From a virus (Duplodnaviria > Heunggongvirae > Uroviricota > Caudoviricetes): DNA of 64,000 bases. Under the pieces are notes generated by a model. The model worked only from the letters and a program-made list of their open reading frames with translations, ran no database searches and was not told where the DNA came from. Where the stretch lies: IMG/VR virus record IMGVR_UViG_3300001605_000009, one strand, 5' to 3'. Both the position numbers and the translations under genes were made by a program. Of this stretch, positions 9,216-45,577 are shown in pieces (position 1 is the stretch's first letter; each line of letters opens with the position of its first letter).

Positions 9216-9292
9216 TGGCGAGGGTGCTCGGATTCGAACCGAGATTTGTGGGGTTGGAGTCCACCGTGTTAAACCATTGTCACTACACCGAC
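9216..9292 (-). tRNA. tRNA-like gene, possibly Trp (CCA anticodon), with two acceptor-stem mismatches
   Basis: It has a T-arm (CTCGG-TTCGAAT-CCGAG), an anticodon stem-loop with CCA at positions 34-36, and a 3' CCA end. The 5' acceptor strand GTCGGTG pairs imperfectly with the 3' strand CACCCTC. Confidence 0.4.
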
Positions 9293-9295
9293 GTA

Positions 9296-9508
9296 TTAGT
9301 TGTAGAGGTCTCGTGCATCAGCTTCATTATTGAATACTGCGCAACCACAATACCTCATAGTGTGCCTACGGAAATGCTTATCAAAATAAGCATTATGACT
9401 TGCTAGGTCTTCGCAAGCCTCTTTCAAAGTTTCACCCTTACCGTAGCCCAGGTGACAGGCTGTGTAGTCTCGGCGTGGGTCGCCCTCACACCAGATTTCC
9501 ATTAACAT
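9296..9508 (-). CDS. hypothetical Cys-rich small protein
   Basis: ORF only. Confidence 0.3.
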   Translation of the reverse strand: MLMEIWCEGDPRRDYTACHLGYGKGETLKEACEDLASHNAYFDKHFRRHTMRYCGCAVFNNEADARDLYN

Positions 9509-9600
9509 GCTACTCTCCTTAGATAAACAGAATAGCGTAAAATAGAATGGAAGTCAAGGATAGAATTAAGTCTAGCCCTATACGAGTTACAATAATTTCT

Positions 9601-9792
9601 TTACTTGGCATCTACACACTCCACATAACTTGTTTGTCCGTCATTCCAGTGCCTAATGACACCAGCTACAATAACAGCGTTGGTAATTAAATACGCCGCT
9701 AATATAGCAGTACGAATATAGGCTACAACATCTGATTCTTTGTTGCACTCAGTAGCCTTATCACCGAGTGCCTTACACCATAAACGCCACAT
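9601..9792 (-). CDS. hypothetical small membrane protein
   Basis: The ORF contains a hydrophobic segment. Confidence 0.3.
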   Translation of the reverse strand: MWRLWCKALGDKATECNKESDVVAYIRTAILAAYLITNAVIVAGVIRHWNDGQTSYVECVDAK

Positions 9793-9808
9793 ATTAATTC
9801 CTTTAAGA

Positions 9809-9882
9809 TGGATGCTCGACTAGGGCTCGAACCTAGATTGCACGGATCAAAACCGCGTTTCCTACCATTAGAAGATCGAGCA
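9809..9882 (-). tRNA. tRNA-Gln (UUG)
   Basis: Manual fold: the acceptor strands TGCTCGA and TCGAGCA pair perfectly, the anticodon loop is TTTTGAT, and the T-arm is CTAGG-TTCGAGC-CCTAG. Confidence 0.75.
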
Positions 9883-9883
9883 A

Positions 9884-9958
9884 TGGTGCTTCCACTCTGA
9901 ATCGAACAGAGATTTTCGGGTTACAAAGCCGAGGTAATAGCCGTTATACTATGGAAGC
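9884..9958 (-). tRNA. tRNA-Thr (UGU)
   Basis: The acceptor strands GCTTCCA and TGGAAGC pair perfectly, the anticodon loop is TTTGTAA, and the T-arm is CTCTG-TTCGATT-CAGAG. Confidence 0.65.
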
Positions 9959-10101
9959 TTGGTGGAAACCCTCACGGATTGGTTTCCTGTACGAGCACTC
10001 CCACGACTATTGGCTGCAGCACAAATAGTGTCTCGTATTAACCCTCACGTATCGGGTTTAATGTCTAGCATTACGACCAGCAGGGGTAGCTAGACTGAAC
10101 G

Positions 10102-10177
10102 TGGTACTCCCAGTAGGATTCGAACCCACGACCAAGCCATCATGAGTGGCCGGCTCTAACCGCTGAGCTATAGGAGC
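10102..10177 (-). tRNA. tRNA with a CAU anticodon (Met, or Ile2 if modified by lysidine)
   Basis: The acceptor stem pairs with G-U wobbles, the D-arm is TAGCTCAGCGGTTAGAGC, the anticodon loop is CTCATGA, and the T-loop is TTCGAAT. Confidence 0.75.
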
Positions 10178-10349
10178 ATTATTCTGGGTCTAAAATGAAA
10201 AGTAGAATAGTTAGTGGCCATACTAAAGACACACCAAGAAGAATCACAAACTGTGTAGACCCAATCTTAATAGGTGAGTCGTATAACATATAAGCTATTA
10301 AGGCTAAAGCTATTCCAAAGTAAATGATTGCTGCTATTTCCATTTTAAC

Positions 10350-10426
10350 CTCTTATACCTGGTGCACCCGGCAGGACTCGAACCTGCAACATACGGAGTA
10401 GAAATCCGATGCTCTGTCCAGTTGAG
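10350..10426 (-). tRNA. tRNA-Arg (UCU)
   Basis: Acceptor strands GCACCCG and CGGGTGC, D-arm GCTCAACTGGACAGAGC, anticodon loop TTTCTAC, and T-arm GCAGG-TTCGAGT-CCTGC. Confidence 0.7.
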
Positions 10427-10442
10427 CTACGGGTGCTAATTA

Positions 10443-10904
10443 CTAATGTCTAACGCAGTGATCTGCGGCTGTAGTTGCAGCAAAGCTATCTGGCTTTACT
10501 CGCGCTTGAAGACCAAGACCTCGAACCCATCCAATAGCCTCACTTGTAACTACATTACTAGCGTGACGAGGGTCAGGATTAAAGTCTAGGTGAATTTCGA
10601 GACGACGATCTCCAACTACGTCTTCAATAGCGTAGAATGCCTCTAGAGCAAACTGCACTTCCATCATTAGACGGGGGCGCATCTGACCGTAATCTGGTAG
10701 AGTTACCTTGTTATGAAAGACCTTGCAGCCATTTTTAGAGTTCATATGTAGAATAATAACTGTAGAAAAGTCAGCCTTATTCTTCGTTGAATTTCGTAAT
10801 GAGTCACATCCAATATAAATACTTGATGCCTTACTTGATTTTAGAATTTCTTCTCTGGCATCAGCCCACATAACTATCCGTTTCAATTGACTCAATAGAC
10901 TCAA
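10443..10904 (-). CDS. hypothetical protein
   Basis: ORF only. Confidence 0.35.
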   Translation of the reverse strand: MSLLSQLKRIVMWADAREEILKSSKASSIYIGCDSLRNSTKNKADFSTVIILHMNSKNGCKVFHNKVTLPDYGQMRPRLMMEVQFALEAFYAIEDVVGDRRLEIHLDFNPDPRHASNVVTSEAIGWVRGLGLQARVKPDSFAATTAADHCVRH

Positions 10905-11115
10905 ACTTAATCGAGCGCCACTGGTTCTGCTCCAAGTCCCATACTGTTATAGTAAACTGGGACGGAGCGTATTTAATATTAGGGTTCAACTCAAGAACAG
11001 GCAAAAACATACTGTTCAATGTGCAATGCATTTCACGCTTTTCGCCATTCACTTTAGTGAATACGATAGTGGCTGTTTCTGTTTTCAGAAGCTCGCGAAG
11101 TTCGTTAATATCCAT
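10861..11115 (-). CDS. hypothetical protein
   Basis: ORF preceded by a consensus promoter at 11142-11185. Confidence 0.4.
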   Translation of the reverse strand: MDINELRELLKTETATIVFTKVNGEKREMHCTLNSMFLPVLELNPNIKYAPSQFTITVWDLEQNQWRSIKFESIESIETDSYVG

Positions 11116-11141
11116 GTGCCTTTTGCCTTTCTGTTGATACT

Positions 11142-11185
11142 CTTATATCAAAATAGAGGTACTAAGTCAAGAACTATTTTCGACC
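11142..11185 (-). promoter_or_regulatory. sigma70 promoter with TTGACT, a 17-nt spacer and TATAAG
   Basis: The minus strand reads aaaatagttcTTGACTtagtacctctattttgaTATAAG, with a ribosome-binding site and ATG downstream. Confidence 0.6.
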
Positions 11186-11351
11186 TTCATTACTAGAGAG
11201 AAGTTCTCATATCGCCTGAGAAACTCTAGCTCACGAGACATAGTTTCCTCAATCATTGGTGAGAATACTGGAAAACTGTATGTAGAACTAATTGGGTTCC
11301 CACGAAGTGGGAAAGTGCTGGTGATAGTTACTTTCATGGTAACTCCTAAAA

Positions 11352-11442
11352 TGGTAGTCCTGTGTGGATTCGAACCACAATTAACCCCTAATCTGGGCTC
11401 CGGGATATAAATCCGGTCGTTTTACCATTAAACTACAGGACC
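11352..11442 (-). tRNA. tRNA-like gene, 91 nt, with a long extra arm; the anticodon may be UAU (Ile) but the fold is unusual
   Basis: The acceptor strands GGTCCTG and CAGGACT pair, and the D-arm and T-arm (TGTGG-TTCGAAT-CCACA) are canonical. The anticodon region is ccgga-TTTATAT-cccgg, and roughly 20 nt lie between the anticodon arm and the T arm. Confidence 0.5.
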
Positions 11443-11444
11443 GT

Positions 11445-11530
11445 TGGTGGGGAAGACGGGACTCGAACCCGCACGGACAAAGTCCACAAGATTTTAAGTC
11501 TCGCGCGGCTACCAATTTCACCACAACCCC
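11445..11530 (-). tRNA. tRNA-Leu (UAA), type II, with U-U mismatches in the acceptor stem
   Basis: The D-loop AAATTGGTAG and anticodon loop CTTAAAA are Leu-like, a variable arm and T-loop TTCGAGT are present, and the 3' end is CCA. The acceptor strands GGGGTTG and CTTCCCC give 5 of 7 pairs. Confidence 0.5.
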
Positions 11531-11625: not shown

Positions 11626-14600
11626 TTAAAAGAATGCTAGAAATGCTCCTAACTTCTTTATAGCGCCAATAATAGACCCTGTTATATAACTGATTGATAA
11701 ATAATTAGGACTTGTTCCTGTAAAAGAAAGACCCGTATTATTCCCTCCATTCGTACTATTAGCTCCTACATTCCACGCTGTTGACTTTTTAAGAATCGCC
11801 GGAGTAGTGTTCGTAGAAGTTATAGTTACTAAGGAACTTGAATCCCCACTTATATTGAAACTACTAAATGTCTGAGTTGATCCACCTTCAAATTTTATAG
11901 TAGTAGGTTTCACTGTATTACTCATAGTATCAAAAGTATTGTTACCATAGATTGACAGAGTGCTTCTTTGTAACGTGGTAGAAGATGGAGTAACAGTAAA
12001 GTTATTATATGTCTGGTCACCTCCATAGAATTGGTATTCTACTGGTATTGAATAGGTAGTACATATGATATTGGCCGTGCCTTTATCTAATGTAAGATTA
12101 GTGGGATCGCTTATATCCCAACCAAATATTGGTATTAATGCAGAATACGCGCTCACATCTATTAAATATTGAAGATATGTAAGGTTATATGGTACTATAG
12201 TCCAATTACCAGACCCCATTATCAGGGCTCTACTTGAAGTGTAACTACTACTAAATTCTGGTACAGTAACATCATATCCATTAGCATTAAATGTTCCGGC
12301 CTTTAATATCATCCCTCCAGTAGTGTTCAGAGTAGCGCCATAAGAATAATAGGCGAGATTTATAGCACTACCTAGCTGATAAATTGCTCCTGGACAGTTG
12401 AATGTTAGAAACGCGCCACAAGCATTACTTGTAGTGTTGATAGTTAATGTCTTAGTTCCAGAGGTTGCCAAGAAATTAACAAAGCCAGTCAGAACAGCAG
12501 AGTTGTTAGTCATATTACCGTAGATATTAACTTTTGATGCCATATTGTACGTACCAGTGAATCCTGTATCGTTATAGTTACGAATAGAAGGTACTCCACC
12601 TGTACTAAATGAGATTATATCTGAACCAGCAGTAATATTTATATCAAAACAGGTAGTCTCTGTCATTCCAGGAGCAAATATAGTTCTAGTCCCCGTGCTT
12701 CCAGAATAAGTCAAATTCACAGTTGGTATACCTGTGTAATTAAAGTTCCCACCACTTACCTCCATATAAAGTATAGTACCGTTATTACCAGTAATATTTA
12801 TAGCACTACTACCGAATGCAATAGCTGGAAAGTCATATATAGAGGCAGATACAGCAGGCTGTAGCGAAGAAACTGTAGCAGTAAATCCATTCAAGTCTAG
12901 TGTACCAGTATAAATAGATACAGTACCACTACAAGTCAGCGCTGAGCCTAGCTTAGTTGTACCAGAATTAGTGTTATATACATTTATACCTGTAGGCCAT
13001 GTAACTCCTGCAGAAGTAATAGTTTGAGTAGCCCCACTTTTATTAAATGTTACTACTCCTGTTCCTGTTATTGTTAGTCCAGAGTATAGAGTGACATTTC
13101 CATATATATCAGGAGATGTTGTACCAATAGCTAAAGTAGAAGCTGTTGTTCTAGAAGAGTAATTTAAAGTACCAATGTTCCAGTTGGCATTTATTGTAAG
13201 CGTACTTGCAACACCCGTATTAGTGAATGTTGCAGTATCTTGAGCTAATGGGAAGTTAGCTACTGCAGGAGTACCCGCTGCTGTTGTTGCCCAAGCTGTT
13301 GCAGTCCAAAGAGAATTACCCAATAAGTTCCAATACACAGTTTTAGGAGTAGATGTGGTAATATTAGTGTTGTTTCCACAATCTCCAAGCCTTATTCCTG
13401 TCCAAGTACCTGCAGCTCCTGCAGCTGTAATATCCCTGAAGTCTACATCAGTAAGGGCAGATATTGCATTTGCTGTTATTGTTCTAGCAGTACCTTGAGT
13501 ATTAGATTGTAGGAAAGTTCTATAGATTGCTGACGTGCCGGCCCCAATAGTAAGTGTACCGTTGACAGTTTGATTACCTCCACCAAATATGACTTGACTA
13601 ATACCCACACTTCCAGTACGTCCAGCTATATTTAAATTATTGAAAGTATTAACTCCAGTAATATTAGCAGTGTTAATTGCTGTATTATTAAATGTTACAT
13701 TATAGTATGTTTTATCCCCGCCAGTGAAGGTAGGAGTAGTAGAAGTTAATACTATTGTAGAGGTACCGGCATTTATAGTATTTGTAGACAGTGCTTGCCA
13801 TGCCGTTCCAGTAGCGGATAGTGTCACTGTAGAACCATTTAAGTTTATAGTGGCATACTCACTTGCATTAATAGTTGTTGCGGATACAGAGTAGTTAGAA
13901 GTGTCAAGATTTCCTACAAGATTTATAGCATTAGTTGAGGTAAATGCTCCGCCCAATAACACTGTAGTTGATGGGCTGTAGGATGCTATCGCGATAGGAA
14001 ATGATTTTCCTGCAGTATTTAAGGTTTGTGTTTTGGTATACCCCAAAAAGGCTAACTGTCCTGTAAGTGTTGTTGGCGTTACACCCGTTCCTAGTATAAA
14101 ATCACTGTATACAAATTGAGTACTACTACCAAAAGCTAGCGTCATTACGGTTGTTCTGGCAGACATATTGATAGTACCCGTATTATATAGACCATCAAAG
14201 GTAACAGTAGTTGCTGCGCCAGTATTATCAAATATAGCAGTATCTTGAGCCAATGGAAAGTTATTTACAGCAGGAGTTCCACCAGAACTGGTGGCCCAAC
14301 CATTAGCAGACCAATTTACAGTTCCAGTTAGATTCCAATAGACAGTTTTAGAGGACTCAAATGTAATATTAGAGTTATTCCCACAATCACCAAGTCTGGT
14401 ACCAGACCAATTTCCTGAGGTACCTGCTACTACAATATCTCTGAAGTCAACATCTACTAATGAACTAATCGCAGCAACAGTTAGCGTGATTTGGGTATCA
14501 AACACCTGACTAAGTAGCCAAGTTCTGTATGCTGGACCAGTTCCTGCTCCTATATTAAGAGTTCCATTAATAGTCTGATTAGCATTAAATTGTAAATAAT

Positions 14601-17600
14601 TAACCCCAGTAACTGTTCTTCCAGCAATCGTAAGATTGTTAAATACATTGCTACCTCTAATACTATTAACGACTGATTCAGCGGAACCACCTGAGGTAAA
14701 ACTTACATTATAATAGGTTTGTTCGCCTCCATTAAATGATTGACTGGCAGCACTCAAGTTAATCGTTGATGTTCCACTTGATAAAGTAAGACCTGTTGGT
14801 ACCGTAATATCCCACCCACCAGAAGATAAAGTAATAGTTGAAGACCCCAAAGTCAACGATCTGGTATTACTATTACTACTAGAAACAGATCCTGCAGTAA
14901 CATTAAAGTTACTAGTGCTGAACGAGCCGTTAGTTAGCGTTAATGTGTATGTACTTAAATTGATAGCGTCAGCAAGAGTCCACTCTCCGCCAATACCATT
15001 GAATGTAATTGGACACCCCAATGCTTTACCACTAGAAGTGATTATTTTACCGGCAGATGTTGATGCAAATGTTCTCACACCTGCGCCAGCAGTAACAGTC
15101 ATGCCTGTTGATAACGTCAGATTACCGTAGATTGTAATGGCACTATTTGGCCAAGTACCCGCAAAACCAGTAAATACTAGATTTCTTACGTTTCCAGTAA
15201 CAGTAGTAGAGCTTGTTCCTGCGGTGATATTAAACGATACACTGTTAGATTCAGATGGAGAACCCGCGATAATAGTTCTAGCTGTTGCAGTAGCGTTAGT
15301 TACGTTTACAATAGGAGTTCCTGTTACTGTCATATTGTATACGTTTGTAGCATCCCATACTGTACCAGTCCCATTAAGAGTTAAGGAGCCATAATTAAAA
15401 GCTAAGGTTCTTGCGCTGTTTGAATTTGTTATAAAAGCAGGACATGAATGATTATTTCCATTCAAATCTAAATATCCAGCCGCAAGTCTTATAGTACTAG
15501 TAGAAGTAGTACCAGTTGATAACTGACCAGTAAGAGTCCATCGTCCAAACAGTCCATTAAAAACTATAGGGAATCCTAGGGTTTTTCCATTTGGATTAAT
15601 AGTATTACCAGTATATGTTGATAAGAATGAAACAGTATTCGTACCAGCAGCCACTGTCATTCCAGTTGATACAGTAAGACTTCCATAAATTCCTAACGCT
15701 ACATTAGTCCATGAGCCTGCAAATCCAGTGAAGTCTAGGTTTTTTATTCTGTTATTAGCAGTGAACGTAACAGGGCCAGTTCCTGCAGTGATATTAAAGG
15801 AAAAAGCATAATCTTCCGACCATACTCCGGCAGAGATCGTCCTAGTAAGAGATGTAACGGCAGTGACATCTACTCTTCTTAGGCCAGAAGTAGTTAAATT
15901 AGTTACTGTAGCAGTATTCCAAATAGTACCAGTTCCCTCTAGTTTTAAATACCCAGTAGACCCAAACATAATAGACCTAGTATTAGAATTACTAGATGAA
16001 AAGGAATTTAGAGATAAAGAGTACTCATTTAAATCAAGTGTACCATTAGTTAGCGTAAGCGACCCCATTCCTGTATTAGTAACATTTACTTTTATTGTAC
16101 TGTTGTAGGCGTCTATATTAGTAATATTTGTAGGTTGATAGCCTACTAATTGGATTTTATTTACTCCGATATAATTTAAAGTACAGCCGATACCCGCAGA
16201 AACACCCATCATATTATTATTACTTCCACACCAGTAAGTAGTAGTCGTGCCATAGGATAAGGTAAAAAGAGTCGATCTAGCGGTGGTATCATAAGTACCA
16301 ATATACCAATTCTGATCAAGAGTAAGAGTACTCCCAGCACTATTGTCATCCACAATACACGTATCTTGTACTAATGGAAAATTAGCAGCATCTGGGGTGC
16401 CACCAGAAGTCAATGCCCAGCCTGGTGAAGACCAGTTACTAACTCCTGGACGGTTCCAATATACGGTTTTTGGCGCTGCAAATGTGATGAGAGAGTTTCC
16501 TCCTGCGTCACCTAAACTAGTGCCGGACCATGTAGCTGTCCCAGATCCTGTAATGTAGCGAAAGTCTACATTCGAAAGGTCCGTTGAAGCTGCGGTAATA
16601 ACTCTAGGGCTGCCTGTTTGGTTACTTTGTAGTAATGTTCGATTTAGTAGTTCAGTACTAGATACAGTTAATGTACTAGTAATTACTACATCACCACCTA
16701 AATATGTAGGCGTTACTCCTACTGAGTCCCTGGCTGGGATATTTAAATTAATAAAAGTTATGGTAGGAGAAGGACTATTAACTGAACTACCAATACTATA
16801 TCCAAATGTATTTGCAGTAAAATTAACAGTACCAAAACTCTGCCCATCTGGAAGAAAGTTTACAATAGCCGCAGTATGCGTACAATTAATAGTAGATGAA
16901 ATACCACTAAAAGTTAGCTCTGTTGAGTTAAAAGTTATAGGTGACTGCCCATTTAGTGTTACAGTAGAAGTACCTAATGTTATTGATCTAATGTTAGAAT
17001 TACTAGACGAAATACTGCCCGCAGTTACATTATAGTTACCTGTGTCAAACGAACCCTTAGTGACTGTGATTTGATTCGTTCCAATATTCAACGCATCTTG
17101 CAGAGTCCACCCACCACCAACACCATCAAAAGTAGCAGGGCCGTTTAATGTGACGCCATTAGATGTAATGGTCTTACCTGTAGAAGTGGCTGCGAATGTA
17201 AGTGATGTATACGCGGCTACTGTTTGACCAGTTCCAAGAGTCAGGTTTCCATATATAGTACCCGCTGTTGGAATCCATGCTCCACTAAACCCAGTGAAGT
17301 CTAGATTCTTAAAGGTACTCGTGCTGGTTGATACGTTTCCTGTTCCGGCTGTGACATTTACAGATGCTTCAGAGAGTGCACCTGTGGTAATTGTTCTGGC
17401 TGTTGCTGATGAGTTAGTCAGATTGACTGTAGGGAACCCCGATATAGCTATAGAAGAGGTCGTATTGAATACTGTGCCAGTTCCCGATAATGATACAATA
17501 CCCGATGTACCAAAATTTAGTGTTCTAGCAGACAGACCAGTAGAAACGAATAATCCCGTTGTGAGTGTGAAGTTATTCAGGTTTAATGTACCAGAGTTTA

Positions 17601-18600
17601 ACGTGGTAGTTCTAGTCGAACCTACGGTAAACGCATCCTGAAGTGTCCATACACCTGTACCATTAAAGTTAATGGGAAAATCTAATAATTTACCATTGGT
17701 TGTAATTGTTCTACTGACATTTGCAAAAAATGTCCAGGCTCTTGTACCCGCAGTCAGTATCATAGTAGGGGATAATATTAAATTTCCATATATGCTTATA
17801 GCAATATTACTTACAGTACCGCTAAATCCAGTAAAGTTTAAATTGTTCACGCGATTGTCTGCGGTGAAAGTAACAATATCTGTTCCGGCAGTAAAGTTAA
17901 AACTTAATTCAGTAGCATTCGCTCCCGCATTTATAGTTCTTGTCCCAGTAGATCCAGAATAAGTGCAGTTAATTGTCGGTGTTCCAGAAACTTTTAATCC
18001 AGTTTGAGTAGCTGCATCAAAAATAGTTGTACCAGAGCCAGTAAGCGTTAAGTCTCCAGTACCAAAGTTAAATGTTCTCGTAGTAGATCCGGAGATATTG
18101 GCTGTTAACGCGGTAAATTTATTAGTGCCTATCGATAGAGTACCCACCGTAAGGGTAAGTGTACTGCTCGTAGAAAATGCCCCGTTTAGGGTAACTGTAA
18201 TAGAGTTGCCATTTACTACTACAGGACTACTAATTATTGAAGTACCAGTATTACATATAGCAGTGGTACCATTGAAGGATAGTGAGCCTGTGTTTGTCCA
18301 ATTAATAGTTCCAGAAATAGTAAGTCCAGAAGTAGTCACAGATATATTACTTGATCCATTAAAAGTCAAAGTGCCTGCTGATGGGTTTGCCATATTAATA
18401 CCAAGAACTGATGTAGTAGCAGTTCTTGTTACTGTGTAGGATGCTCCAGACCCTGCAACATTAGACTCAGAGTCAAAAATGGCAACATCGGCAGTAGTTG
18501 GAACGGCAGCACCTCCAGTTCCTCCAGATGTAAGTGACCAATTAGTTGTGTTCGTAGCATCCCAGGTACCTGTGCCGCCTACCCAATATTTATTAGCCAT
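11626..18600 (-). CDS. giant repetitive Ser/Thr/Gly/Asn-rich structural protein (2324 residues), likely a tail fibre or adhesin with beta-helix-like modules
   Basis: A single ORF of 2324 residues. The module KTVYWNxxGxxxWSxxGWAxxxGGTPxxxNFPLxQDT occurs four times and the module NL(D/V)FTGF(S/A)G(T/A)W at least five times. Composition is low-complexity beta-rich. The gene lies next to small fibre-like genes. Confidence 0.8.
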   Translation of the reverse strand: MANKYWVGGTGTWDATNTTNWSLTSGGTGGAAVPTTADVAIFDSESNVAGSGASYTVTRTATTSVLGINMANPSAGTLTFNGSSNISVTTSGLTISGTINWTNTGSLSFNGTTAICNTGTSIISSPVVVNGNSITVTLNGAFSTSSTLTLTVGTLSIGTNKFTALTANISGSTTRTFNFGTGDLTLTGSGTTIFDAATQTGLKVSGTPTINCTYSGSTGTRTINAGANATELSFNFTAGTDIVTFTADNRVNNLNFTGFSGTVSNIAISIYGNLILSPTMILTAGTRAWTFFANVSRTITTNGKLLDFPINFNGTGVWTLQDAFTVGSTRTTTLNSGTLNLNNFTLTTGLFVSTGLSARTLNFGTSGIVSLSGTGTVFNTTSSIAISGFPTVNLTNSSATARTITTGALSEASVNVTAGTGNVSTSTSTFKNLDFTGFSGAWIPTAGTIYGNLTLGTGQTVAAYTSLTFAATSTGKTITSNGVTLNGPATFDGVGGGWTLQDALNIGTNQITVTKGSFDTGNYNVTAGSISSSNSNIRSITLGTSTVTLNGQSPITFNSTELTFSGISSTINCTHTAAIVNFLPDGQSFGTVNFTANTFGYSIGSSVNSPSPTITFINLNIPARDSVGVTPTYLGGDVVITSTLTVSSTELLNRTLLQSNQTGSPRVITAASTDLSNVDFRYITGSGTATWSGTSLGDAGGNSLITFAAPKTVYWNRPGVSNWSSPGWALTSGGTPDAANFPLVQDTCIVDDNSAGSTLTLDQNWYIGTYDTTARSTLFTLSYGTTTTYWCGSNNNMMGVSAGIGCTLNYIGVNKIQLVGYQPTNITNIDAYNSTIKVNVTNTGMGSLTLTNGTLDLNEYSLSLNSFSSSNSNTRSIMFGSTGYLKLEGTGTIWNTATVTNLTTSGLRRVDVTAVTSLTRTISAGVWSEDYAFSFNITAGTGPVTFTANNRIKNLDFTGFAGSWTNVALGIYGSLTVSTGMTVAAGTNTVSFLSTYTGNTINPNGKTLGFPIVFNGLFGRWTLTGQLSTGTTSTSTIRLAAGYLDLNGNNHSCPAFITNSNSARTLAFNYGSLTLNGTGTVWDATNVYNMTVTGTPIVNVTNATATARTIIAGSPSESNSVSFNITAGTSSTTVTGNVRNLVFTGFAGTWPNSAITIYGNLTLSTGMTVTAGAGVRTFASTSAGKIITSSGKALGCPITFNGIGGEWTLADAINLSTYTLTLTNGSFSTSNFNVTAGSVSSSNSNTRSLTLGSSTITLSSGGWDITVPTGLTLSSGTSTINLSAASQSFNGGEQTYYNVSFTSGGSAESVVNSIRGSNVFNNLTIAGRTVTGVNYLQFNANQTINGTLNIGAGTGPAYRTWLLSQVFDTQITLTVAAISSLVDVDFRDIVVAGTSGNWSGTRLGDCGNNSNITFESSKTVYWNLTGTVNWSANGWATSSGGTPAVNNFPLAQDTAIFDNTGAATTVTFDGLYNTGTINMSARTTVMTLAFGSSTQFVYSDFILGTGVTPTTLTGQLAFLGYTKTQTLNTAGKSFPIAIASYSPSTTVLLGGAFTSTNAINLVGNLDTSNYSVSATTINASEYATINLNGSTVTLSATGTAWQALSTNTINAGTSTIVLTSTTPTFTGGDKTYYNVTFNNTAINTANITGVNTFNNLNIAGRTGSVGISQVIFGGGNQTVNGTLTIGAGTSAIYRTFLQSNTQGTARTITANAISALTDVDFRDITAAGAAGTWTGIRLGDCGNNTNITTSTPKTVYWNLLGNSLWTATAWATTAAGTPAVANFPLAQDTATFTNTGVASTLTINANWNIGTLNYSSRTTASTLAIGTTSPDIYGNVTLYSGLTITGTGVVTFNKSGATQTITSAGVTWPTGINVYNTNSGTTKLGSALTCSGTVSIYTGTLDLNGFTATVSSLQPAVSASIYDFPAIAFGSSAINITGNNGTILYMEVSGGNFNYTGIPTVNLTYSGSTGTRTIFAPGMTETTCFDINITAGSDIISFSTGGVPSIRNYNDTGFTGTYNMASKVNIYGNMTNNSAVLTGFVNFLATSGTKTLTINTTSNACGAFLTFNCPGAIYQLGSAINLAYYSYGATLNTTGGMILKAGTFNANGYDVTVPEFSSSYTSSRALIMGSGNWTIVPYNLTYLQYLIDVSAYSALIPIFGWDISDPTNLTLDKGTANIICTTYSIPVEYQFYGGDQTYNNFTVTPSSTTLQRSTLSIYGNNTFDTMSNTVKPTTIKFEGGSTQTFSSFNISGDSSSLVTITSTNTTPAILKKSTAWNVGANSTNGGNNTGLSFTGTSPNYLSISYITGSIIGAIKKLGAFLAFF

Positions 18601-23690: not shown

Positions 23691-23972
23691 TTATTGACTT
23701 GCCTTCTCAGCTTCTTTGAGCCGTTTATCTACTAGTAGCGCGTATCCTGCAAGATCGTGCCATGAGTCTGAGTATAGGGTTCCAATGGGGGCATTTAGAA
23801 TGCGTGCAATCTTATCCGCTATAGTTGTTAGTGCCTGTCGTTCATCAGCTAGTAAATGATTCCAGTTTGTATTAGATCGCATTACGTCTTGAAGAGCCTG
23901 TGCAATCGTAGCGTGGTCCATAAAGGTTCCATACCGCGCTCCACGCTCTTCTAATGTCTTATCTACAGACAT
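23691..23972 (-). CDS. hypothetical protein
   Basis: ORF whose stop lies inside a palindromic hairpin with a T-tract at 23676-23704. Confidence 0.35.
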   Translation of the reverse strand: MSVDKTLEERGARYGTFMDHATIAQALQDVMRSNTNWNHLLADERQALTTIADKIARILNAPIGTLYSDSWHDLAGYALLVDKRLKEAEKASQ

Positions 23973-24247
23973 TTAATCTCCTTGCCGTTGTTAATTGCAT
24001 CCTTGACGCAATTGTATAAATCAATTAATTTGTTTTTTTGGTGTGCTTCAGCATTATACTGCATATCAGAAGCTGCGCCATCTAGTACAAGAGCACCCAT
24101 TGAAGGATCTGTTAGCTGCGGCAGTTGACCTGCTTTCTCTGATAGACCAGGTGGAATATCAGGAATTCGTACTGGTTTTGCTAAGCCTGTGTCCAAGGTC
24201 TTACAGCAACCTCCTAGTAGTAATACCGATAGTAATAATACTTTCAT
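23963..24247 (-). CDS. outer-membrane spanin (o-spanin, lipoprotein)
   Basis: Signal peptide with lipobox LLGGC, Pro-rich, and a start that overlaps the end of the upstream inner-membrane spanin gene by 4 nt. Confidence 0.55.
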   Translation of the reverse strand: MKVLLLSVLLLGGCCKTLDTGLAKPVRIPDIPPGLSEKAGQLPQLTDPSMGALVLDGAASDMQYNAEAHQKNKLIDLYNCVKDAINNGKEIKCL

Positions 24248-24684
24248 TTTACGTCTCCCAATACTACCTTAGCTGGGTACTGTGGACCTAGCTGACGTAT
24301 TGCGTTTCTATTGTCTAGTACTTCCTGATCCACTACACACGAAGTGTAAACTGGATTGTTCTTTACTATGGTTTGTAGCCGGTCACGATACACAGTCTCT
24401 GTCTTAACGCGCTTTAATGCTTCTTCTACGGCATTCTTGCCGAATGTAGAAACAACACTAACAATAAGAGCTTCAAATTCTCTGTTCTTAGCGTCTTCGA
24501 CGGCTACTCTGGCTTCCCACTTCGCTCGTTCTTCAAGAACACCCTTGTCATAGTACTTATCAGATACTACAAAGAAGGAAACTACTAGTCCTACTGTTGG
24601 TAGTAACCATTTCCAGTTATTACTTATAAAATTACCAATAAACTTGGTTCCACCAAGGAGGGCTAGGCCTATACTAGTTAACAT
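24244..24684 (-). CDS. inner-membrane spanin (i-spanin, Rz-like)
   Basis: An N-terminal transmembrane helix is followed by a coiled-coil (ERAKWEARVAVEDAKNREFEAL). It sits immediately upstream of the lipoprotein gene. Confidence 0.55.
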   Translation of the reverse strand: MLTSIGLALLGGTKFIGNFISNNWKWLLPTVGLVVSFFVVSDKYYDKGVLEERAKWEARVAVEDAKNREFEALIVSVVSTFGKNAVEEALKRVKTETVYRDRLQTIVKNNPVYTSCVVDQEVLDNRNAIRQLGPQYPAKVVLGDVK

Positions 24685-24712: not shown

Positions 24713-25003
24713 TTAATAGCAGTTATCGCACTTTGGAGATTCAAAGACTTTTCGTGAGGCTGGTTGGCCGCAGTCACCACAGATAGCTGCTGACATTTCT
24801 CTAGCAAACATGGCGAAAGCATCTGTTATCTTGCTTCCACCTGCATAGGTAATCTGTAGTAGCCCGTGGTGAACGTCAAATTGAACTTCACCTTGTACTG
24901 GAATACCCCTGTTAAATTCTACGTCGTATTCGGACATTGTAACAAAGGCGGAAATAATTGGTTCCCAACTAGTTGGTACCTCCTTACTTACATAGACTTG
25001 CAA
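24713..25003 (-). CDS. hypothetical protein
   Basis: ORF only. Confidence 0.3.
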   Translation of the reverse strand: MQVYVSKEVPTSWEPIISAFVTMSEYDVEFNRGIPVQGEVQFDVHHGLLQITYAGGSKITDAFAMFAREMSAAICGDCGQPASRKVFESPKCDNCY

Positions 25004-25397
25004 GGTACTTTTCCTTATTATCAGAAGAGAAATAAATACGCTCTTCTTCTTCAGAGAGAGGTCTACTCATTGGAGTATTCTTCTCGTCCCTCCAACACAG
25101 ATGGTTGGTATTCTCAAAAGGTATAAGCCAAGGTGTCATTAATTTCTCCGTGTAAGTGCGGCGGGTTCTGTTTCTAGGTTCCGCCAGACCCAAGAAGAAT
25201 CAAGCTACTAGAGCTAGACCTTCAAATGCTGAGTTATCGTTAGCATTTACTTTTTGTGGCTCTTTGCCAGTCAATAGTCTCGGCGTTCCCTATTACACGA
25301 AAATCGATCCCTGGTCGCCCCCATCATAGAATATCGGACTGTGTAGGTACCAATACACGAGACACTGATAAACGGTCAGGCTCTTCCCAATATTCTA

Positions 25398-25425
25398 TGG
25401 TGGAGGCGGCGGGAATTGAACCCGC
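25398..25425 (-). ncRNA. tRNA/tmRNA 3'-end-like element (T-arm, acceptor 3' strand and CCA) with no matching 5' half
   Basis: The minus strand reads GACGCGGG-TTCAATT-CCCGCCGCCTCCACCA. This matches the 3' end of bacterial tmRNA and tRNA closely. No complementary GGAGGCG was found within plausible distance. Confidence 0.4.
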
Positions 25426-25454
25426 GTCTTTTCGTCTTTATTGTCGGCTGTCAG

Positions 25455-25497
25455 CGACTATATACTCGTTATAACAAAAGTTACAACAAAAGTCAAG
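25455..25497 (-). promoter_or_regulatory. sigma70 promoter (TTGACT, 17-nt spacer, TATAAC) firing into the tRNA/tmRNA-like fragment
   Basis: The minus strand reads aaaaatatttcTTGACTtttgttgtaacttttgtTATAAC, about 45 nt upstream of the fragment. Confidence 0.5.
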
Positions 25498-25732
25498 AAA
25501 TATTTTTCAAGCGTTCGGCCTTAGCACGAAGATGCTCAGCTGGGGACATTCCGTAGTCCTGATGGTTAACAGAAATATTCGCTAGTACAAATCCAAGGTC
25601 TTTTCGCTCCTGATAGAACTGCTCACGCATCTTTCGCTTACGCTCTAGCTTCTGCTCACGAGTTTCTAGATTTGGGAAGTTGACTTGTCCGTTGGACTTT
25701 TGCTTCTGTACGACCTGTTCTGCTTCCTGCAC
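25493..25732 (-). CDS. hypothetical basic protein
   Basis: ORF with the promoter at 25830-25870 upstream. Confidence 0.4.
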   Translation of the reverse strand: MQEAEQVVQKQKSNGQVNFPNLETREQKLERKRKMREQFYQERKDLGFVLANISVNHQDYGMSPAEHLRAKAERLKNIS

Positions 25733-25829
25733 TTATAATCTCCTCTATTGTTCTACCACATCCTAGACATGTATTGGTTGACCTTTCTAGTTCACACTTA
25801 TTTTGACATCTCTTTTCTGTCATTAGACT

Positions 25830-25870
25830 AATATAGAGAAGTTTAAATCAAAAGTCAACTACTAAATTTT
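25830..25870 (-). promoter_or_regulatory. sigma70 promoter with TTGACT, a 17-nt spacer and TATATT (the leftward member of a divergent pair)
   Basis: The minus strand reads aaaatttagtagTTGACTtttgatttaaacttctcTATATT. Confidence 0.55.
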
Positions 25871-25899: not shown

Positions 25900-25950
25900 A
25901 ACCTAAAATAGCTCTTGACTTTTACCTTAACTTACTCTATATTACTTAAA
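25900..25950 (+). promoter_or_regulatory. sigma70 promoter with TTGACT, a 17-nt spacer and TATATT (the rightward member of a divergent pair)
   Basis: The plus strand reads aaaatagctcTTGACTtttaccttaacttactcTATATT at 25915-25943. Confidence 0.6.
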
Positions 25951-33348: not shown

Positions 33349-33422
33349 TGGTGCGGACGGAGAGTATCGAACTCTCGACTACTGGGTGGAAGCCAGTCAC
33401 GTTACCATTACGCCACGCCCGC
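33349..33422 (-). tRNA. tRNA-Gly (UCC)
   Basis: The acceptor strands GCGGGCG and CGTCCGC pair with one G-U. Anticodon loop CTTCCAC; T-arm GAGAG-TTCGATA-CTCTC. Confidence 0.75.
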
Positions 33423-33661
33423 ATTAATCCATTCTCTAACGTCGTCAGACGTGATACTAAACTTGTGATACTTCTTGAGCATAGACACTACTCTAGGTAC
33501 AATATAAGAGTATAGAACTACTCTATCCTTGACCTTGTTCTCTACAGTCAGATAAGGTTTACCTGCTATATAGGCTCTTGCTAGAAAGGTTGCTCTGTTC
33601 TCGTTTCCAACATCCCACCTACGATGGGCTGCAGTTGCTTATCGGCCACACCTAAGTTAAC

Positions 33662-33746
33662 TGGTGGGTAGTGTAGGGTTCGAACCTACCGTGCCTTTCG
33701 ACTCTGGGTTTACAATCCAGGACGCGTCCACTCGCGCATACTACCC
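33662..33746 (-). tRNA. tRNA-Tyr (GUA), type II
   Basis: An 85-nt gene with acceptor strands GGGTAGT and ACTACCC, anticodon loop TTGTAAA, a long variable arm, and T-arm GTAGG-TTCGAAC-CCTAC. Confidence 0.7.
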
Positions 33747-34118
33747 AATTATTTCTCTGCCGCTTTTCATCGTTATTAGTTTATTCGTGAACTCATTCCA
33801 TGTTTTAGCCCAAGGCCCACGAAAAGTCAAGACATATGTTTGACCATGCGAATCCACTTTGTGAAAATCTTCTCTAGTAGTAATGAAGGGAATCAAGCTA
33901 GGTTTATATTCACGAACGCTACCGTCGAGCATAGTCTCGGTCAGCTTTCCTTTTAGGACCCAACTAAAGCAGTTGAATGCATGATTGTGAAAAGCTTCAC
34001 GGCTACGACCGTCAAATTTTAGTATAAGAGCCGAGAATAAGCGCCTAGACTCAATAAGCCAGTAACCTGTTACTGTGCTTTCTGGTCCGCCGTCTTTCAT
34101 TTTCTTAAGGAGCTTCAT
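33741..34118 (-). CDS. hypothetical protein
   Basis: ORF only. Confidence 0.35.
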   Translation of the reverse strand: MKLLKKMKDGGPESTVTGYWLIESRRLFSALILKFDGRSREAFHNHAFNCFSWVLKGKLTETMLDGSVREYKPSLIPFITTREDFHKVDSHGQTYVLTFRGPWAKTWNEFTNKLITMKSGREIIG

Positions 34119-34375
34119 CCGTACATTTCCTGTTGCTCAAACATTCTTTCACGAAGACTAACTTCACGAAATAGTGCATCGTCCGGAACTGTTTTTAGTA
34201 GATCAATCTGCTCTTCTGTGAGTTGTGTACAGTAGTATCCATAATCTTCTGGATCAAGCTTTAACACATTCTTAATATAGTTAAAATAACTATGTTGATG
34301 TTCTGGACTAAGGTAGGCTCGGTTTACTAACATACCTCCATCTTTGACCCAAACTGGTACTTGAATTTCTTCCAT
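34115..34375 (-). CDS. hypothetical protein
   Basis: ORF only. Confidence 0.35.
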   Translation of the reverse strand: MEEIQVPVWVKDGGMLVNRAYLSPEHQHSYFNYIKNVLKLDPEDYGYYCTQLTEEQIDLLKTVPDDALFREVSLRERMFEQQEMYG

Positions 34376-34376
34376 A

Positions 34377-34727
34377 TCAAAATACCTTTAGCTGATTTGC
34401 ACTGAACCCAATCTGACGATACAGAATATCATTCAAGATAGGAAGTTTAGTTTTAACTATACCCATACGCTGAGAGTTAGGCTTCTTACGAAGAATAGTA
34501 CCTCTAGTCTTTAGACCCGCACCCTTTGCTAGTATAGCAATCTGACGTCCAATCTCATACCCAGGACTACTAATATCGTAGTTAAATGGCTCGCCATTAT
34601 AAATGGAAAGAATACCAGCATGAATACTAGGAATATTTAGCCAGTCTTCTACGGTTGTTCTAACGCCCTCTACGGTAATATTGCTCATTAGTATCTCCAC
34701 TTGTTGAAACCATATTAGCGGATTCAA
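34377..34727 (-). CDS. hypothetical protein
   Basis: ORF only. Confidence 0.35.
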   Translation of the reverse strand: MNPLIWFQQVEILMSNITVEGVRTTVEDWLNIPSIHAGILSIYNGEPFNYDISSPGYEIGRQIAILAKGAGLKTRGTILRKKPNSQRMGIVKTKLPILNDILYRQIGFSANQLKVF

Positions 34728-34756
34728 CGTGAAGGATCAAGACTTAAATTAGGAAC

Positions 34757-34832
34757 TGGTGAACCATGTTGGGATCGAACCAACGACACGGAGATTAAGA
34801 GTCTCCTGCTCTACCTACTGAGCTAATGGTCC
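34757..34832 (-). tRNA. tRNA-Lys (CUU)
   Basis: Acceptor strands GGACCAT and ATGGTTC, D-arm TAGCTCAGTAGGTAGAGC, anticodon stem GGAGA/TCTCC with loop CTCTTAA, and T-loop TTCGATC. Confidence 0.7.
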
Positions 34833-34987
34833 GAATACTTAACTCAATACACTAGATATTGTTAATACCACTCCGTTTAGCTTAAGAGTGCGTAAAAGCG
34901 ACCTGACAATCACCCTTTCGCATAGTGTCAGCTATACCGACACTTTGAGAGAGTGCCGTCTAGTGTACTGAGTTAAATACTCGGTAA

Positions 34988-35063
34988 TGGTGCCTCCCCG
35001 AGGAATCGAACCCCAACCTCTAGTTCTTCAGACCAGCGCGCACACCAGCTACGCCAGAGAGGC
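34988..35063 (-). tRNA. tRNA-Phe (GAA)
   Basis: Acceptor strands GCCTCTC and GGGAGGC, anticodon loop CTGAAGA, and T-loop TTCGATT. Confidence 0.7.
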
Positions 35064-35187
35064 AAAATGCTGTTACGGTAGCACTCCACTTGATTTATAC
35101 ATAGAACGTCAACTAGATAGCGTCTGCAGTACGGACCTAGTAATATAGTCTAGTGATAAATAGTGAAGTGCTGTCATAACAGCACAA

Positions 35188-35269
35188 TGGAGTCGGCGAC
35201 AGGATTCGAACCTGCATTTTCAATCCAGTTACCTTTCTCTCCGTTCGTAGCGGAGGGGGTTACGCCGAC
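35188..35269 (-). tRNA. atypical tRNA-like gene, 82 nt; the anticodon arm may read ACG (Arg) but the D-arm is irregular
   Basis: The acceptor strands GTCGGCG and CGCCGAC pair perfectly, the T-arm is GCAGG-TTCGAAT-CCTGT, and the 3' end is CCA. The internal arms CTCCG-CTACGAA-CGGAG do not fit a standard cloverleaf. Confidence 0.4.
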
Positions 35270-35278
35270 AATATTATT

Positions 35279-35944
35279 TTACCAGTTGGGTACTTTGTTA
35301 GATTTCTTTAGATTTTCTTCTACGGTTAAATACTGTAGGTTATTCTCTACATGTAGTCCACAACTATTTTTAGCGTTAAGAGGGTATATATGATCTACAT
35401 GATACCCTTCTGGACACTCATTATATATTTCTTTTAGCTTCTTAATATCTGCCCATGGAGCTAGGGCTTGTTTTAGTTGGGCCCTTCTTCTGGCATTCTT
35501 TTCTCTACCATGTATTTTCCAGTATTCCTGATGATACTCTTTATTATTTTGATAATTATTCTTATTATATGAAGATTTACAATCTGTGCAGTACCTGTCT
35601 ATACCGTCATGCTCTAGGGCAGATTTAGTGAAAGTCTCTCTTAAAGAGAATTCACTACATCCGGAGCACTTCTTGTAGTCTGACTGTCTTACTAGCCAGG
35701 ATACCCAGGTACCCTCCCCTCCTTGTAGCTTTACCTCAGGAAATAGCCTCTTAACTAATCTATTAAAGGTCTGTTCAGACCTACCAAGACTTTTTATAGC
35801 TTTTGGACCTGTTCCATAAGTAAATAGGGCGTCTACCACTTCTCCAAAACAAATAGGTGGTTTTTCACCTCTTTTGTTAATGACTATAGTGTACTGCCCT
35901 ATGTTTAGGTTTTTATAAATTGATTCTTTTACTTTCTGTTCCAT
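35279..35944 (-). CDS. HNH homing endonuclease, inserted within the tRNA cluster
   Basis: HNH motif GYHVDHIYPLNAKNSCGLHVENNLQYLTVEENLKKSNK. N-terminal DNA-binding region. The promoter at 35953-35997 lies upstream. Confidence 0.75.
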   Translation of the reverse strand: MEQKVKESIYKNLNIGQYTIVINKRGEKPPICFGEVVDALFTYGTGPKAIKSLGRSEQTFNRLVKRLFPEVKLQGGEGTWVSWLVRQSDYKKCSGCSEFSLRETFTKSALEHDGIDRYCTDCKSSYNKNNYQNNKEYHQEYWKIHGREKNARRRAQLKQALAPWADIKKLKEIYNECPEGYHVDHIYPLNAKNSCGLHVENNLQYLTVEENLKKSNKVPNW

Positions 35945-35952
35945 ATTCCAAA

Positions 35953-35997
35953 ATAATAGCAGTTTGGAGGACAGAAGTCAAGAACTAAAATTTGGTA
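35953..35997 (-). promoter_or_regulatory. sigma70 promoter with TTGACT, a 17-nt spacer and TATTAT
   Basis: The minus strand reads aaattttagttcTTGACTtctgtcctccaaactgcTATTAT, followed by the ribosome-binding site and ATG of the HNH gene. Confidence 0.55.
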
Positions 35998-36070
35998 CCC
36001 CAGGCGAGACTCGAACTCGCACAACTTTCGGACCTAAACCGAACGACTTTACCAATTTGCCCACAGGGGC
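35993..36070 (-). tRNA. tRNA with a UAG anticodon (Leu-like); one U-U acceptor mismatch
   Basis: Anticodon stem TTCGG/CCGAA with loop TTTAGGT, T-arm GCGAG-TTCGAGT-CTCGC, and acceptor strands GCCCCTG and CTGGGGT. Confidence 0.5.
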
Positions 36071-36078
36071 ACAATAAA

Positions 36079-36154
36079 TGGTGGAGGATAACGGGATCGA
36101 ACCGTTGGCCTCAACAGTGCAAGTGTTGCGCTCTCCCAGCTGAGCTAATCCCCC
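36079..36154 (-). tRNA. tRNA-Ala (UGC)
   Basis: Acceptor strands GGGGGAT and ATCCTCC (one G-U pair), D-arm TAGCTCAGCTGGGAGAGC, anticodon loop CTTGCAC, and T-loop TTCGATC. Confidence 0.75.
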
Positions 36155-36156
36155 AT

Positions 36157-36232
36157 TGGTACCTGATGACGGTCCTGCCCCGCCGACCTGAGTCTTGTAA
36201 GGACCCCGCTCTACTAACTGAGCTAATCAGGC
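36157..36232 (-). tRNA. tRNA-Val (UAC) with a non-canonical T-loop
   Basis: The whole gene aligns with canonical bacterial tRNA-Val except that the T-loop reads GGCAGGA instead of the canonical TTCGATC. The anticodon loop is CTTACAA. Confidence 0.5.
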
Positions 36233-36380
36233 AAACTTTTTTCTACAGGCATACTTTCGTAGCTGTTTCTTTTTATCTTTAATAACTTTTGGTTTGTTGT
36301 ATCTGTAGCTATTACCTGCTACAGGGTTTCTTGTCTTCATTTCAAGTTCTCCTTATAGCAAGAATTTAACTAACAGTCAA

Positions 36381-36457
36381 CATCTAAATTTGGTGAACCC
36401 TCTGGGATTCGAACCCAGGATCGCGGATTAAAAGCCCACTGCTTTAGGCCTACTAAG
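36381..36457 (-). tRNA. tRNA-Lys (UUU)
   Basis: Acceptor strands GGACCCT and AGGGTTC, anticodon loop CTTTTAA, and T-arm CTGGG-TTCGAAT-CCCAG. Confidence 0.7.
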
Positions 36458-36471
36458 CTAAGGGTCCGTTA

Positions 36472-45569: not shown

Positions 45570-45577
45570 TCTTATCT

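Follow-up and report, generated by a model that had tools for sequence, protein, structure and literature searches.

A circularly permuted tmRNA gene, very probably complete and functional, in an uncultured phage resembling T5

Two-piece transfer-messenger RNAs (tmRNAs) are well known from Alphaproteobacteria, from some Betaproteobacteria (now placed within Gammaproteobacteria), and from Cyanobacteria. The prototype of the alphaproteobacterial two-piece tmRNA is reportedly the Caulobacter crescentus ssrA described by Keiler, Shapiro and Williams in 2000. Such permuted genes begin with the 3′ half of the tRNA-like domain; an intervening segment comes next, and then the 5′ acceptor strand together with the tag-coding part (PMC11915505). 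Phages carry them as well; a survey of 18,146 phage genomes turned up 53 unique two-piece tmRNAs, of which 50 were marine or aquatic, and the carriers include the Methylophilales phage Melnitz and pelagimyophages (Buchholz et al. 2022, PMC9004378). The tmRNA database (2025) contains 11,946 permuted sequences, its phage entries number 79, and it calls unique the permuted tmRNA of GCA-2688965 sp002688965.2, which has an intact tRNA-Ala in its intervening sequence (PMC11915505). Here I analyse the minus strand of positions 25398-25497 in the IMG/VR virus record IMGVR_UViG_3300001605_000009, a stretch of 64,000 nucleotides (hereafter the window). A preliminary description had seen there a promoter-driven mini-RNA that ends like a tRNA or tmRNA and lacks a 5′ acceptor partner. 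Very probably, a T5-like phage carries here a complete and functional tmRNA (ssrA) gene in circularly permuted form, and the region comprises its promoter and acceptor piece.

ARAGORN reported a permuted tmRNA ('tmRNA*') at 25109-25490 on the minus strand, with the tag peptide ANDNSAFEGLALVA*. The Rfam model tmRNA_permuted (RF04321) matched 25200-25459 over the full model length with 90.8 bits (gathering score 47). The model alpha_tmRNA (RF01849), the top scorer among the tmRNA models of the clan, matched 25157-25500, again over the full model length, with 79.7 bits (gathering score 50). In a 901-nt region, the E-values of the RF04321 and RF01849 matches were 5e-18 and 8e-22, much better than chance would give. 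Since ARAGORN and both Rfam models match, 25398-25497 is read as the promoter and acceptor piece of a two-piece tmRNA. The order of the parts is that of a permuted tmRNA: an acceptor piece with the CCA end, an intervening segment, and a coding piece starting with G1. The gene and its acceptor piece are as follows.

About 25496-25160, minus strand: whole permuted tmRNA gene, from the promoter to the 3′ pseudoknot.
25398-25459, minus strand: acceptor piece (reported by ARAGORN as the first half of its tmRNA*; the match to RF04321 begins at 25459), containing a 5′ hairpin, the P2a 5′ strand, the T arm, the acceptor 3′ strand, A73, and an encoded CCA.
25443-25458, minus strand: 5′ hairpin GTCGCTGACAGCCGAC, GUCG-CUGACAGC-CGAC.
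25429-25435, minus strand: P2a 5′ strand ACGAAAA, pairing with UUUUCGU at 25303-25297.
25409-25425, minus strand: T arm GCGGG-UUCAAUU-CCCGC.
25398-25408, minus strand: acceptor 3′ strand CGCCUCC, A73 and CCA, pairing with 25322-25316.
25398-25428, minus strand: 3′ terminus GACGCGGGTTCAATTCCCGCCGCCTCCACCA, with the CCA at 25400-25398.

The preliminary description had correctly recognised the tmRNA-type 3′ terminus with its encoded CCA behind a promoter, and the small hairpin that it had noted is present at 25458-25443. Its discrete small RNA of about 70 nt comes close to the mature acceptor piece, which should exist as a separate RNA with a predicted length of about 62 nt, its 5′ end being placed by the promoter spacing and the start of the Rfam model. 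On the other hand, its statement that a complementary 5′ acceptor strand is missing within 400 nt is false. GGGGGCG (25322-25316) is perfectly complementary to CGCCUCC (25408-25402), with G3·U70 as the third pair. The partner lies downstream of the CCA, outside the place where a non-permuted model looks. The tRNA-like domain has a 7-bp acceptor stem, G3·U70, A73 and CCA, as well as a T arm whose loop measures 7 nt and a D-loop analogue.

Is this structure under selection? Homologues of a 96-amino-acid (aa) open reading frame (ORF) downstream of the tmRNA were found in eight IMG/VR contigs with 56-69% protein identity. A permuted tmRNA lies at the same position in seven of them, and the eighth contig is cut off inside the gene. 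A 22-nt motif of the coding piece served to collect further sequences and retrieved 16 more metagenomic copies. Of the 24 viral and metagenomic copies thus gathered, many stand immediately before the same ORFs as in the window. In alignment A1, the acceptor and coding pieces of 17 distinct sequences were joined, with the intervening segment left out. The proposed structure makes standard pairs in 97.4% of the cells, as compared with 44-51% when the partners are slid by 1-3 columns. Fifteen pairs were changed on both sides (shuffled mean 7.4), and the covariation score was reached by none of 500 shuffles. The acceptor stem across the two pieces is 100% paired in the 17 sequences, with three pairs changed on both sides; its 5′ strand occurs in seven variants (GGGGGCG, GGGGGUG, GGGGGUA, GGGGCCG, GGGGACG, GGGGAUG, and GGGGCGG), each with a matching partner, and G3·U70 is present in 17/17. 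The T arm is also 100% paired (3/5 pairs changed on both sides). P2a is 89.9% paired over the 17 sequences, with two pairs changed on both sides, and is present in the minimum-free-energy fold of the precursor. The 5′ hairpin is 95.6% paired, with one pair changed on both sides. An alternative to this hairpin, AGUC (25459-25456) with GACU of the coding piece, is 100% paired with no informative variation, and the GACU partner is invariant by construction because it lies inside the motif used for sequence collection. The fold of the window's 170-nt precursor is the proposed structure (z = -4.2; 0/200 shuffles as stable), a near-continuous helix in which the acceptor stem runs into the intervening hairpin.

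The second half of the gene, on the far side of the intervening segment, consists of the following parts.

25160-25322, minus strand: coding piece, from Rfam, ARAGORN and alignment A1, with its 3′ end between 25160 and about 25150.
25316-25322, minus strand: 5′ acceptor strand GGGGGCG (G1 is 25322), 75 nt downstream of the CCA.
25304-25315, minus strand: D-loop analogue ACCAGGGAUCGA, aligned to the GGxUCGA block of both Rfam models with posterior '*'.
25297-25303, minus strand: P2a 3′ strand UUUUCGU, pairing with ACGAAAA of the acceptor piece.
25257-25269, minus strand: hairpin UGGC-AAAGA-GCCA upstream of the resume codon, in the region of pseudoknot PK1.
25200-25244, minus strand: tag reading frame, with the resume codon GCU at 25244-25242 and the stop codon UGA at 25202-25200, encoding ANDNSAFEGLALVA.
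25160-25191, minus strand: 3′ H-type pseudoknot, with S1 formed by GGGU (25191-25188) and ACCU (25179-25176), and S2 by GGCGG (25185-25181) and CCGCC (25164-25160).

In tmRNAs, the D-loop analogue has a role in SmpB binding. Here, GGGAUCGA aligns with the conserved D-loop block in both Rfam models, and the UCGA is invariant in alignment A1. The mRNA-like domain has an alanine resume codon, no initiation codon, and a hydrophobic degron followed by a stop codon. The tag frame is open in all 25 copies (the window and 24 relatives), with a GCN start and an end of [LV][AV]A plus a stop codon. Nine different tag peptides occur among these copies, all starting with ANDN. The same tag peptide is encoded by three to four nucleotide sequences whose differences are synonymous only, and therefore selection seems to act on the tag peptide. 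The 3′ pseudoknot aligns to the 3′ region of alpha_tmRNA; its S1 is 98.5% paired with two pairs changed on both sides, and its S2 is 100% paired with 4/5 pairs changed on both sides. One sub-lineage (L017 and L026) has 28 extra nucleotides between the tag stop codon and the pseudoknot (A1 columns 185-212), and thus this spacer tolerates insertions. The coding piece of another relative, L033, begins with GUGGGCG in place of GGGGGCG. With U in place of G2, the second pair of the acceptor stem would be lost. A sequencing error or a defective copy may be the reason, and the contig stops short of the acceptor piece.

The promoter noted in the preliminary description (TTGACT, a 17-nt spacer, and TATAAC) is present on the minus strand at the place given there.

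25491-25496, minus strand: −35 hexamer TTGACT, present in the upstream regions of 16/18 distinct relatives.
25468-25476, minus strand: extended −10 TGtTATAAC, with TATAAC at 25473-25468 and TG at 25476-25475, separated from the −35 by a 17-nt spacer.

Most of the 16 relatives that retain the promoter have kept the block AAAAUAwUUC-TTGACT-N14-TGT-TATAwC, and the −10 is conserved as TGTTATAAC or TGTTATATC in most relatives. L016 and L035 have an intact tmRNA gene without the conserved upstream TTGACT block. The pattern TTGACTTTTG-N13-TATA occurs seven times in the window as compared with 0.08 expected, which suggests a family of host-RNA-polymerase promoters employed by the phage. About 330 nt upstream of the tmRNA promoter, back-to-back divergent promoter-like sites at 25830-25858 (minus strand) and 25915-25943 (plus strand), both with TTGACT, a 17-nt spacer and TATATT, belong to the same TTGACTTTT... 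family (seven in the window). Transcription of the tmRNA gene may start near 25461-25459. No terminator-like site was found on the minus strand from 25460 to 24660, neither between the two pieces nor before the following ORFs. Therefore, a single transcript should hold both pieces, and it probably extends into the genes downstream.

Several observations weigh against the assignment. The inner helices specific to the alphaproteobacterial type (the P2b region) are non-canonical, deleted or unmatched in the RF01849 alignment, and the gene is alpha-like rather than a typical alphaproteobacterial member as far as its sequence tells. The PK1 region upstream of the resume codon is invariant and holds the sequence-collection motif, and the UGGC-AAAGA-GCCA hairpin is 100% paired but almost invariant, hence uninformative. 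The minimum-free-energy cofold of the two pieces recovers the acceptor stem and mispairs the T arm with a strand of the 3′ pseudoknot; since the cofold method cannot model pseudoknots, the covariation and the 170-nt precursor fold were preferred over it. The 3′ end of the coding piece is placed only within a range (25160 to about 25150), with no terminator ahead of the next ORF. The −10 hexamer terminates in a non-consensus C, and because of this C at position 6 a simple consensus promoter scan of the window did not list the tmRNA promoter, which is taken as real because it is conserved in 16/18 distinct relatives. T5-like phages of known host infect bacteria having a one-piece tmRNA. Finally, tblastn found no SmpB in the 64-kb window (best E = 2.2), with an approximate Escherichia coli SmpB query, which a very divergent SmpB could escape. 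SmpB would then have to be supplied by the host or be encoded elsewhere in the phage genome.

How might the RNA work? The sigma-70-type promoter with its extended −10 would yield a single precursor. In it, as covariation and folding indicate, CGCCUCC-ACCA would pair with GGGGGCG across the 75-nt hairpin, and ACGAAAA with UUUUCGU. The tRNA-processing enzymes would then remove the intervening segment, with RNase P cutting 5′ of G1 (25322) and 3′ maturation stopping at the CCA (25398). This excision is proposed because it is established for two-piece tmRNAs (PMC11915505). The segment varies in the relatives from 5 nt (UUUAC) to 143 nt with no conservation of its sequence, while both flanking pieces are conserved, in line with the predicted excision. 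The acceptor piece (about 62 nt) and the coding piece (about 165 nt) would remain, joined by the acceptor stem and the P2 pairing. The identity elements G3·U70 and A73 are present, so that alanyl-tRNA synthetase would be expected to charge the RNA. Together with host SmpB and EF-Tu, the RNA would enter stalled ribosomes and translation would resume at GCU (25244). The appended ANDNSAFEGLALVA would act as a ClpXP-type degron, and the tagged product would be degraded. The phage may benefit by keeping ribosomes free during host shutdown; such a rescue benefit is consistent with the tRNA set and the two RNA ligases of the phage, and with the proposals made for Melnitz (PMC9004378).

The same functional tmRNA could also be used early, for tagging host nascent proteins for amino-acid recycling or proteome remodelling, an idea raised by Buchholz et al. 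for phage Melnitz (PMC9004378). The strong-looking sigma-70-type promoter ahead of the gene would suit such a use. So would the LVA end of the tag, which would make it a fast-degrading ssrA-tag variant. However, tmRNA acts on stalled or non-stop ribosomes only, with no known selectivity for host proteins, and nothing in the sequence separates host-protein tagging from plain rescue. The early-tagging use is unlikely.

Chances are much poorer for an RNA that has a tRNA-like domain only, or that does not tag, and that titrates host SmpB and thereby blocks host trans-translation. There is a precedent in the tRNA-like-domain-only molecule of mycobacteriophage DS6A, and a similar molecule inhibits tmRNA (PMC4131195, PMC11915505); the lack of a phage SmpB in the window would also fit. 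Against this, the tag frame, the context of the resume codon, the stop codon, and the [LV][AV]A degron are kept in 25/25 copies with synonymous changes, which would be unexpected for an unused mRNA-like part.

It was also considered whether the locus is a passively carried fragment or a decaying host ssrA pseudogene, left for example by imprecise prophage excision or as an attP-type remnant. Indeed, one-piece and beta-type tmRNAs in other viral contigs end in the very same 31-nt 3′ terminus, and some of these, such as L010 and L013, are no more than short 3′ fragments typical of attachment sites. Yet the gene is complete, its synteny is held across the relatives with a neighbour protein that is merely 56-69% identical, and the compensatory changes imply selection. 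Among 185,579 bacterial and archaeal species genomes, the 22-nt motif was found only in one 592-bp contig of a metagenome-assembled genome, so there is no evident recent host donor, and the phage looks lytic and T5-like. A passive origin of this kind is therefore very improbable. Rather, this near absence of the motif from bacterial and archaeal genomes makes the tmRNA lineage appear to be phage-borne and phage-specific, as judged by sequence. An intact gene in relatives, which the preliminary description would have taken to imply a simple deletion remnant, does exist at this locus; it is a complete permuted gene, just as in the window.

The least tenable proposal is a stand-alone, promoter-driven mini-RNA, some 70 nt long, that imitates only the 3′ half of a tRNA or tmRNA and either serves as a primer or lures away CCA-adding enzyme, RNase P, anticodon nucleases or Hfq as a decoy. 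In its favour, the promoter and the tmRNA-like 3′ end are real, and maturation would indeed leave the acceptor piece as a small RNA of its own. Against it, the 5′ partner 75 nt downstream covaries with the 3′ strand through seven stem sequences, no terminator separates the pieces, and the tmRNA models match the whole gene end to end. Together with the truncated pseudogene, these ideas of the preliminary description are contradicted by the 5′ partner, the tRNA-like domain, the resume codon, the conserved tag frame, and the pseudoknot, which lie 75-238 nt past the CCA and covary with the acceptor piece across relatives. The locus matters chiefly as a correction: a tmRNA-like 3′ end that lacks a partner upstream is the hallmark of a circularly permuted ssrA and does not indicate a new decoy RNA.

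The intervening segment of the permuted tmRNA gene has a structure of its own.

25323-25397, minus strand: intervening segment, 75 nt, absent from the mature tmRNA, with two internal hairpins.
25397-25386 with 25338-25327, minus strand: closing helix of 12 bp, from the folds.
25323-25326, minus strand: single-stranded UGAU leader directly before G1.
25399-25390 and 25334-25325, minus strand: inverted repeat CATAGAATAT/ATATTCTATG, which is the closing helix of the intervening segment.

The 10-bp inverted repeat had been described as flanking the mini-RNA. The repeat does exist, but its left arm starts in the CCA and its right arm lies 64 nt downstream; by these positions, it brackets the intervening segment and not the acceptor piece. 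A closing helix was found in all 15 distinct long segments in the same register, from the first or second nucleotide after the CCA. The closing helices are 88.7% paired as compared with 26-51% when slid, and 0/2000 shuffles reach 88.7%, while their sequences are completely different between lineages. UGAU stands between the closing helix and G1 in 13/15 of these segments, and both a direct reading of the sequence and the precursor fold allow it to pair with the ACCA terminus at A76, C75 and A73. The segment of L016 has only 16 nt and is unstructured.

When other viral copies are taken together with the relatives, seven out of 17 distinct long segments have a canonical T-arm hairpin (4 bp and a UUCRANN loop), where 0.07 would be expected. 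These hairpins (for example, AGGG-UUCGAGU-CCCU) lie mostly just ahead of the 3′ arm of the closing helix. Besides L024, the T-arm scan found them in these places.

L017, 2044-2186: T-arm-bearing segment.
L018, 1130-1219: T-arm-bearing segment.
L023, 1849-1938: T-arm-bearing segment.
L025, 5781-5851: T-arm-bearing segment.
L037, 8589-8676: T-arm-bearing segment.
L001, minus strand: T-arm-bearing segment inside the tmRNA at 16-297.

The segments of L018, L023 and L037 fold as cloverleaves, with ARAGORN calls at relaxed thresholds only. As a tRNA, the L018 segment was rejected, since RF00005 did not match it; the T-arm hairpin alone was matched, via other tRNA-like families. The window's own segment was likewise rejected as a tRNA gene (no tRNA match with E up to 10, and no ARAGORN call at the 85% threshold). 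It matched no family in an Rfam search, and a search of it for the T-loop motif found none.

It may be, although I hold this to be doubtful, that the intervening segment is a selected processing cassette, an acceptor/T-arm-like minihelix within the tmRNA precursor, and thus a phage-specific elaboration of maturation. The features in question are the covarying helix of 8-12 bp after the CCA, the UGAU leader, and the T-arm hairpin in 7/17 long variants. If so, a second cut of the RNase P or tRNA type at the base of the helix would set the CCA 3′ end exactly, a third and possibly stable small RNA would be released, and the CCA end could stay masked until processing. The recurrent tRNA-like pieces in the relatives are a small new observation, because the database paper notes the single tRNA-Ala case as unique (PMC11915505).

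What kind of phage carries the permuted tmRNA? The window encodes a family-A DNA polymerase (PolA), a DnaB-like helicase, two RNA ligases, NAMPT, and NMNAT/Nudix, and its polymerase is at most about 44% identical to the polymerases of T5-like phages. Neither the 3-kb neighbourhood (megablast) nor the tmRNA gene (blastn) matched anything in a phage nucleotide collection; there is no cultured close relative. By its sequence, the source looks like an uncultured, distant T5-like phage, probably lytic. A literature search for T5-like phages carrying a tmRNA returned method citations only. The neighbouring genes and the translation-related genes are as follows.

24984-25139, minus strand: 51-aa ORF MTPWLIPFENT...CW directly after the tmRNA, with ATG at 25139 and the ribosome-binding site GGAG at 25149-25146.
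24713-25003, minus strand: 96-aa ORF following the 51-aa ORF, in the same order in relatives.
9216-11530 and 33349-36467, minus strand: two tRNA gene clusters (ARAGORN and Rfam).
41977-43191, minus strand: T4 Rnl1-like RNA ligase.
44553-45752, minus strand: second RNA ligase.
47116-48492, minus strand: NAMPT.
50137-51189, minus strand: NMNAT/Nudix.

The 51-aa ORF is probably co-transcribed with the tmRNA, and its homologues, with a ribosome-binding site, follow the tmRNA in relatives. The ORF list gives it a spurious upstream TTG start within the tmRNA. Neither the 51-aa nor the 96-aa ORF has a Pfam or PHROG match, and no PHROG or Pfam function was found for the flanking small ORFs except for a DUF1289 match and a spanin-like protein. 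The former belongs to a cysteine-rich 55-aa ORF upstream of the tmRNA (25656-25823, minus strand; E = 2.5e-7), which overlaps a 79-aa ORF in another frame (25493-25732) that reaches the tmRNA promoter. The latter is part of a probable spanin pair at 23963-24684 (minus strand), consisting of a 146-aa weakly Rz-like protein (phrog_1152, E = 2e-4) and, behind it, a 94-aa protein whose signal is of the lipoprotein type (LLGGC). ARAGORN found 14 tRNA genes in the window and Rfam up to 17. Those found by Rfam only include 36160-36232 (45.3 bits) and 35191-35269 (31.1 bits, barely over the gathering score). A very large ORF of 2324 aa lies beside a tRNA cluster (11626-18600, minus strand). The RNA ligases, NAMPT and NMNAT/Nudix make up a set for tRNA repair and NAD salvage, which fits a phage investing in sustained translation.

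The permuted gene of the window can now be set beside the known systems. With the alphaproteobacterial two-piece tmRNA (RF01849), it shares the permuted order, the encoded CCA, G3·U70 together with A73, the T arm, the cross-piece P2, an ANDN... tag with a hydrophobic AA-type degron, and a 3′ pseudoknot with a ACCUNGNAACAGAA loop. It differs in that the helices of the P2b region are absent or unmatched, and in that a long structured intervening hairpin takes the place of a short A/U-rich loop. Furthermore, the window gene resides in a T5-like phage, and its signature motif is essentially absent from bacterial genomes. The tmRNAs of Melnitz and the pelagimyophages are similar in being alpha-type permuted ssrA genes of large lytic phages with tRNA genes, with a promoter ahead and protein genes downstream in the transcription unit, and in having relatives on environmental metagenomic or viral contigs. 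The window differs by a T5-like backbone with PolA in place of that of a T4-like myovirus, and it shows no nucleotide similarity to the records of the phage collection. In Melnitz, the 3′ end of ssrA bears a glutamine riboswitch, while no Rfam riboswitch reached the gathering score in the window. The one-piece tmRNAs of the mycobacteriophage Bxz1 group and of Bacillus phage G are also phage-borne and presumably rely on host SmpB (PMC4131195), but they are standard and non-permuted. The DS6A RNA has a tRNA-like domain only (PMC4131195, PMC11915505), whereas the window gene has a full, conserved tag-coding piece. As in GCA-2688965 sp002688965.2, a tRNA-type structure is nested in the intervening segment of related genes (7/17 distinct long segments), although none of these structures is a true tRNA gene.

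Since phage two-piece tmRNAs were already known, the locus is a further example, ordinary though well preserved, and it leaves the current understanding of trans-translation unchanged. Its modest extras appear to be a phage-specific lineage and unusually structured intervening segments, some with T-arm-like hairpins. The 17 distinct sequences provide clean natural covariation evidence for the cross-piece helices, and the variable yet always helix-closed segment could serve the study of how permuted tmRNA precursors mature. An environmental clade of T5-like phages joins the known carriers of two-piece tmRNAs.

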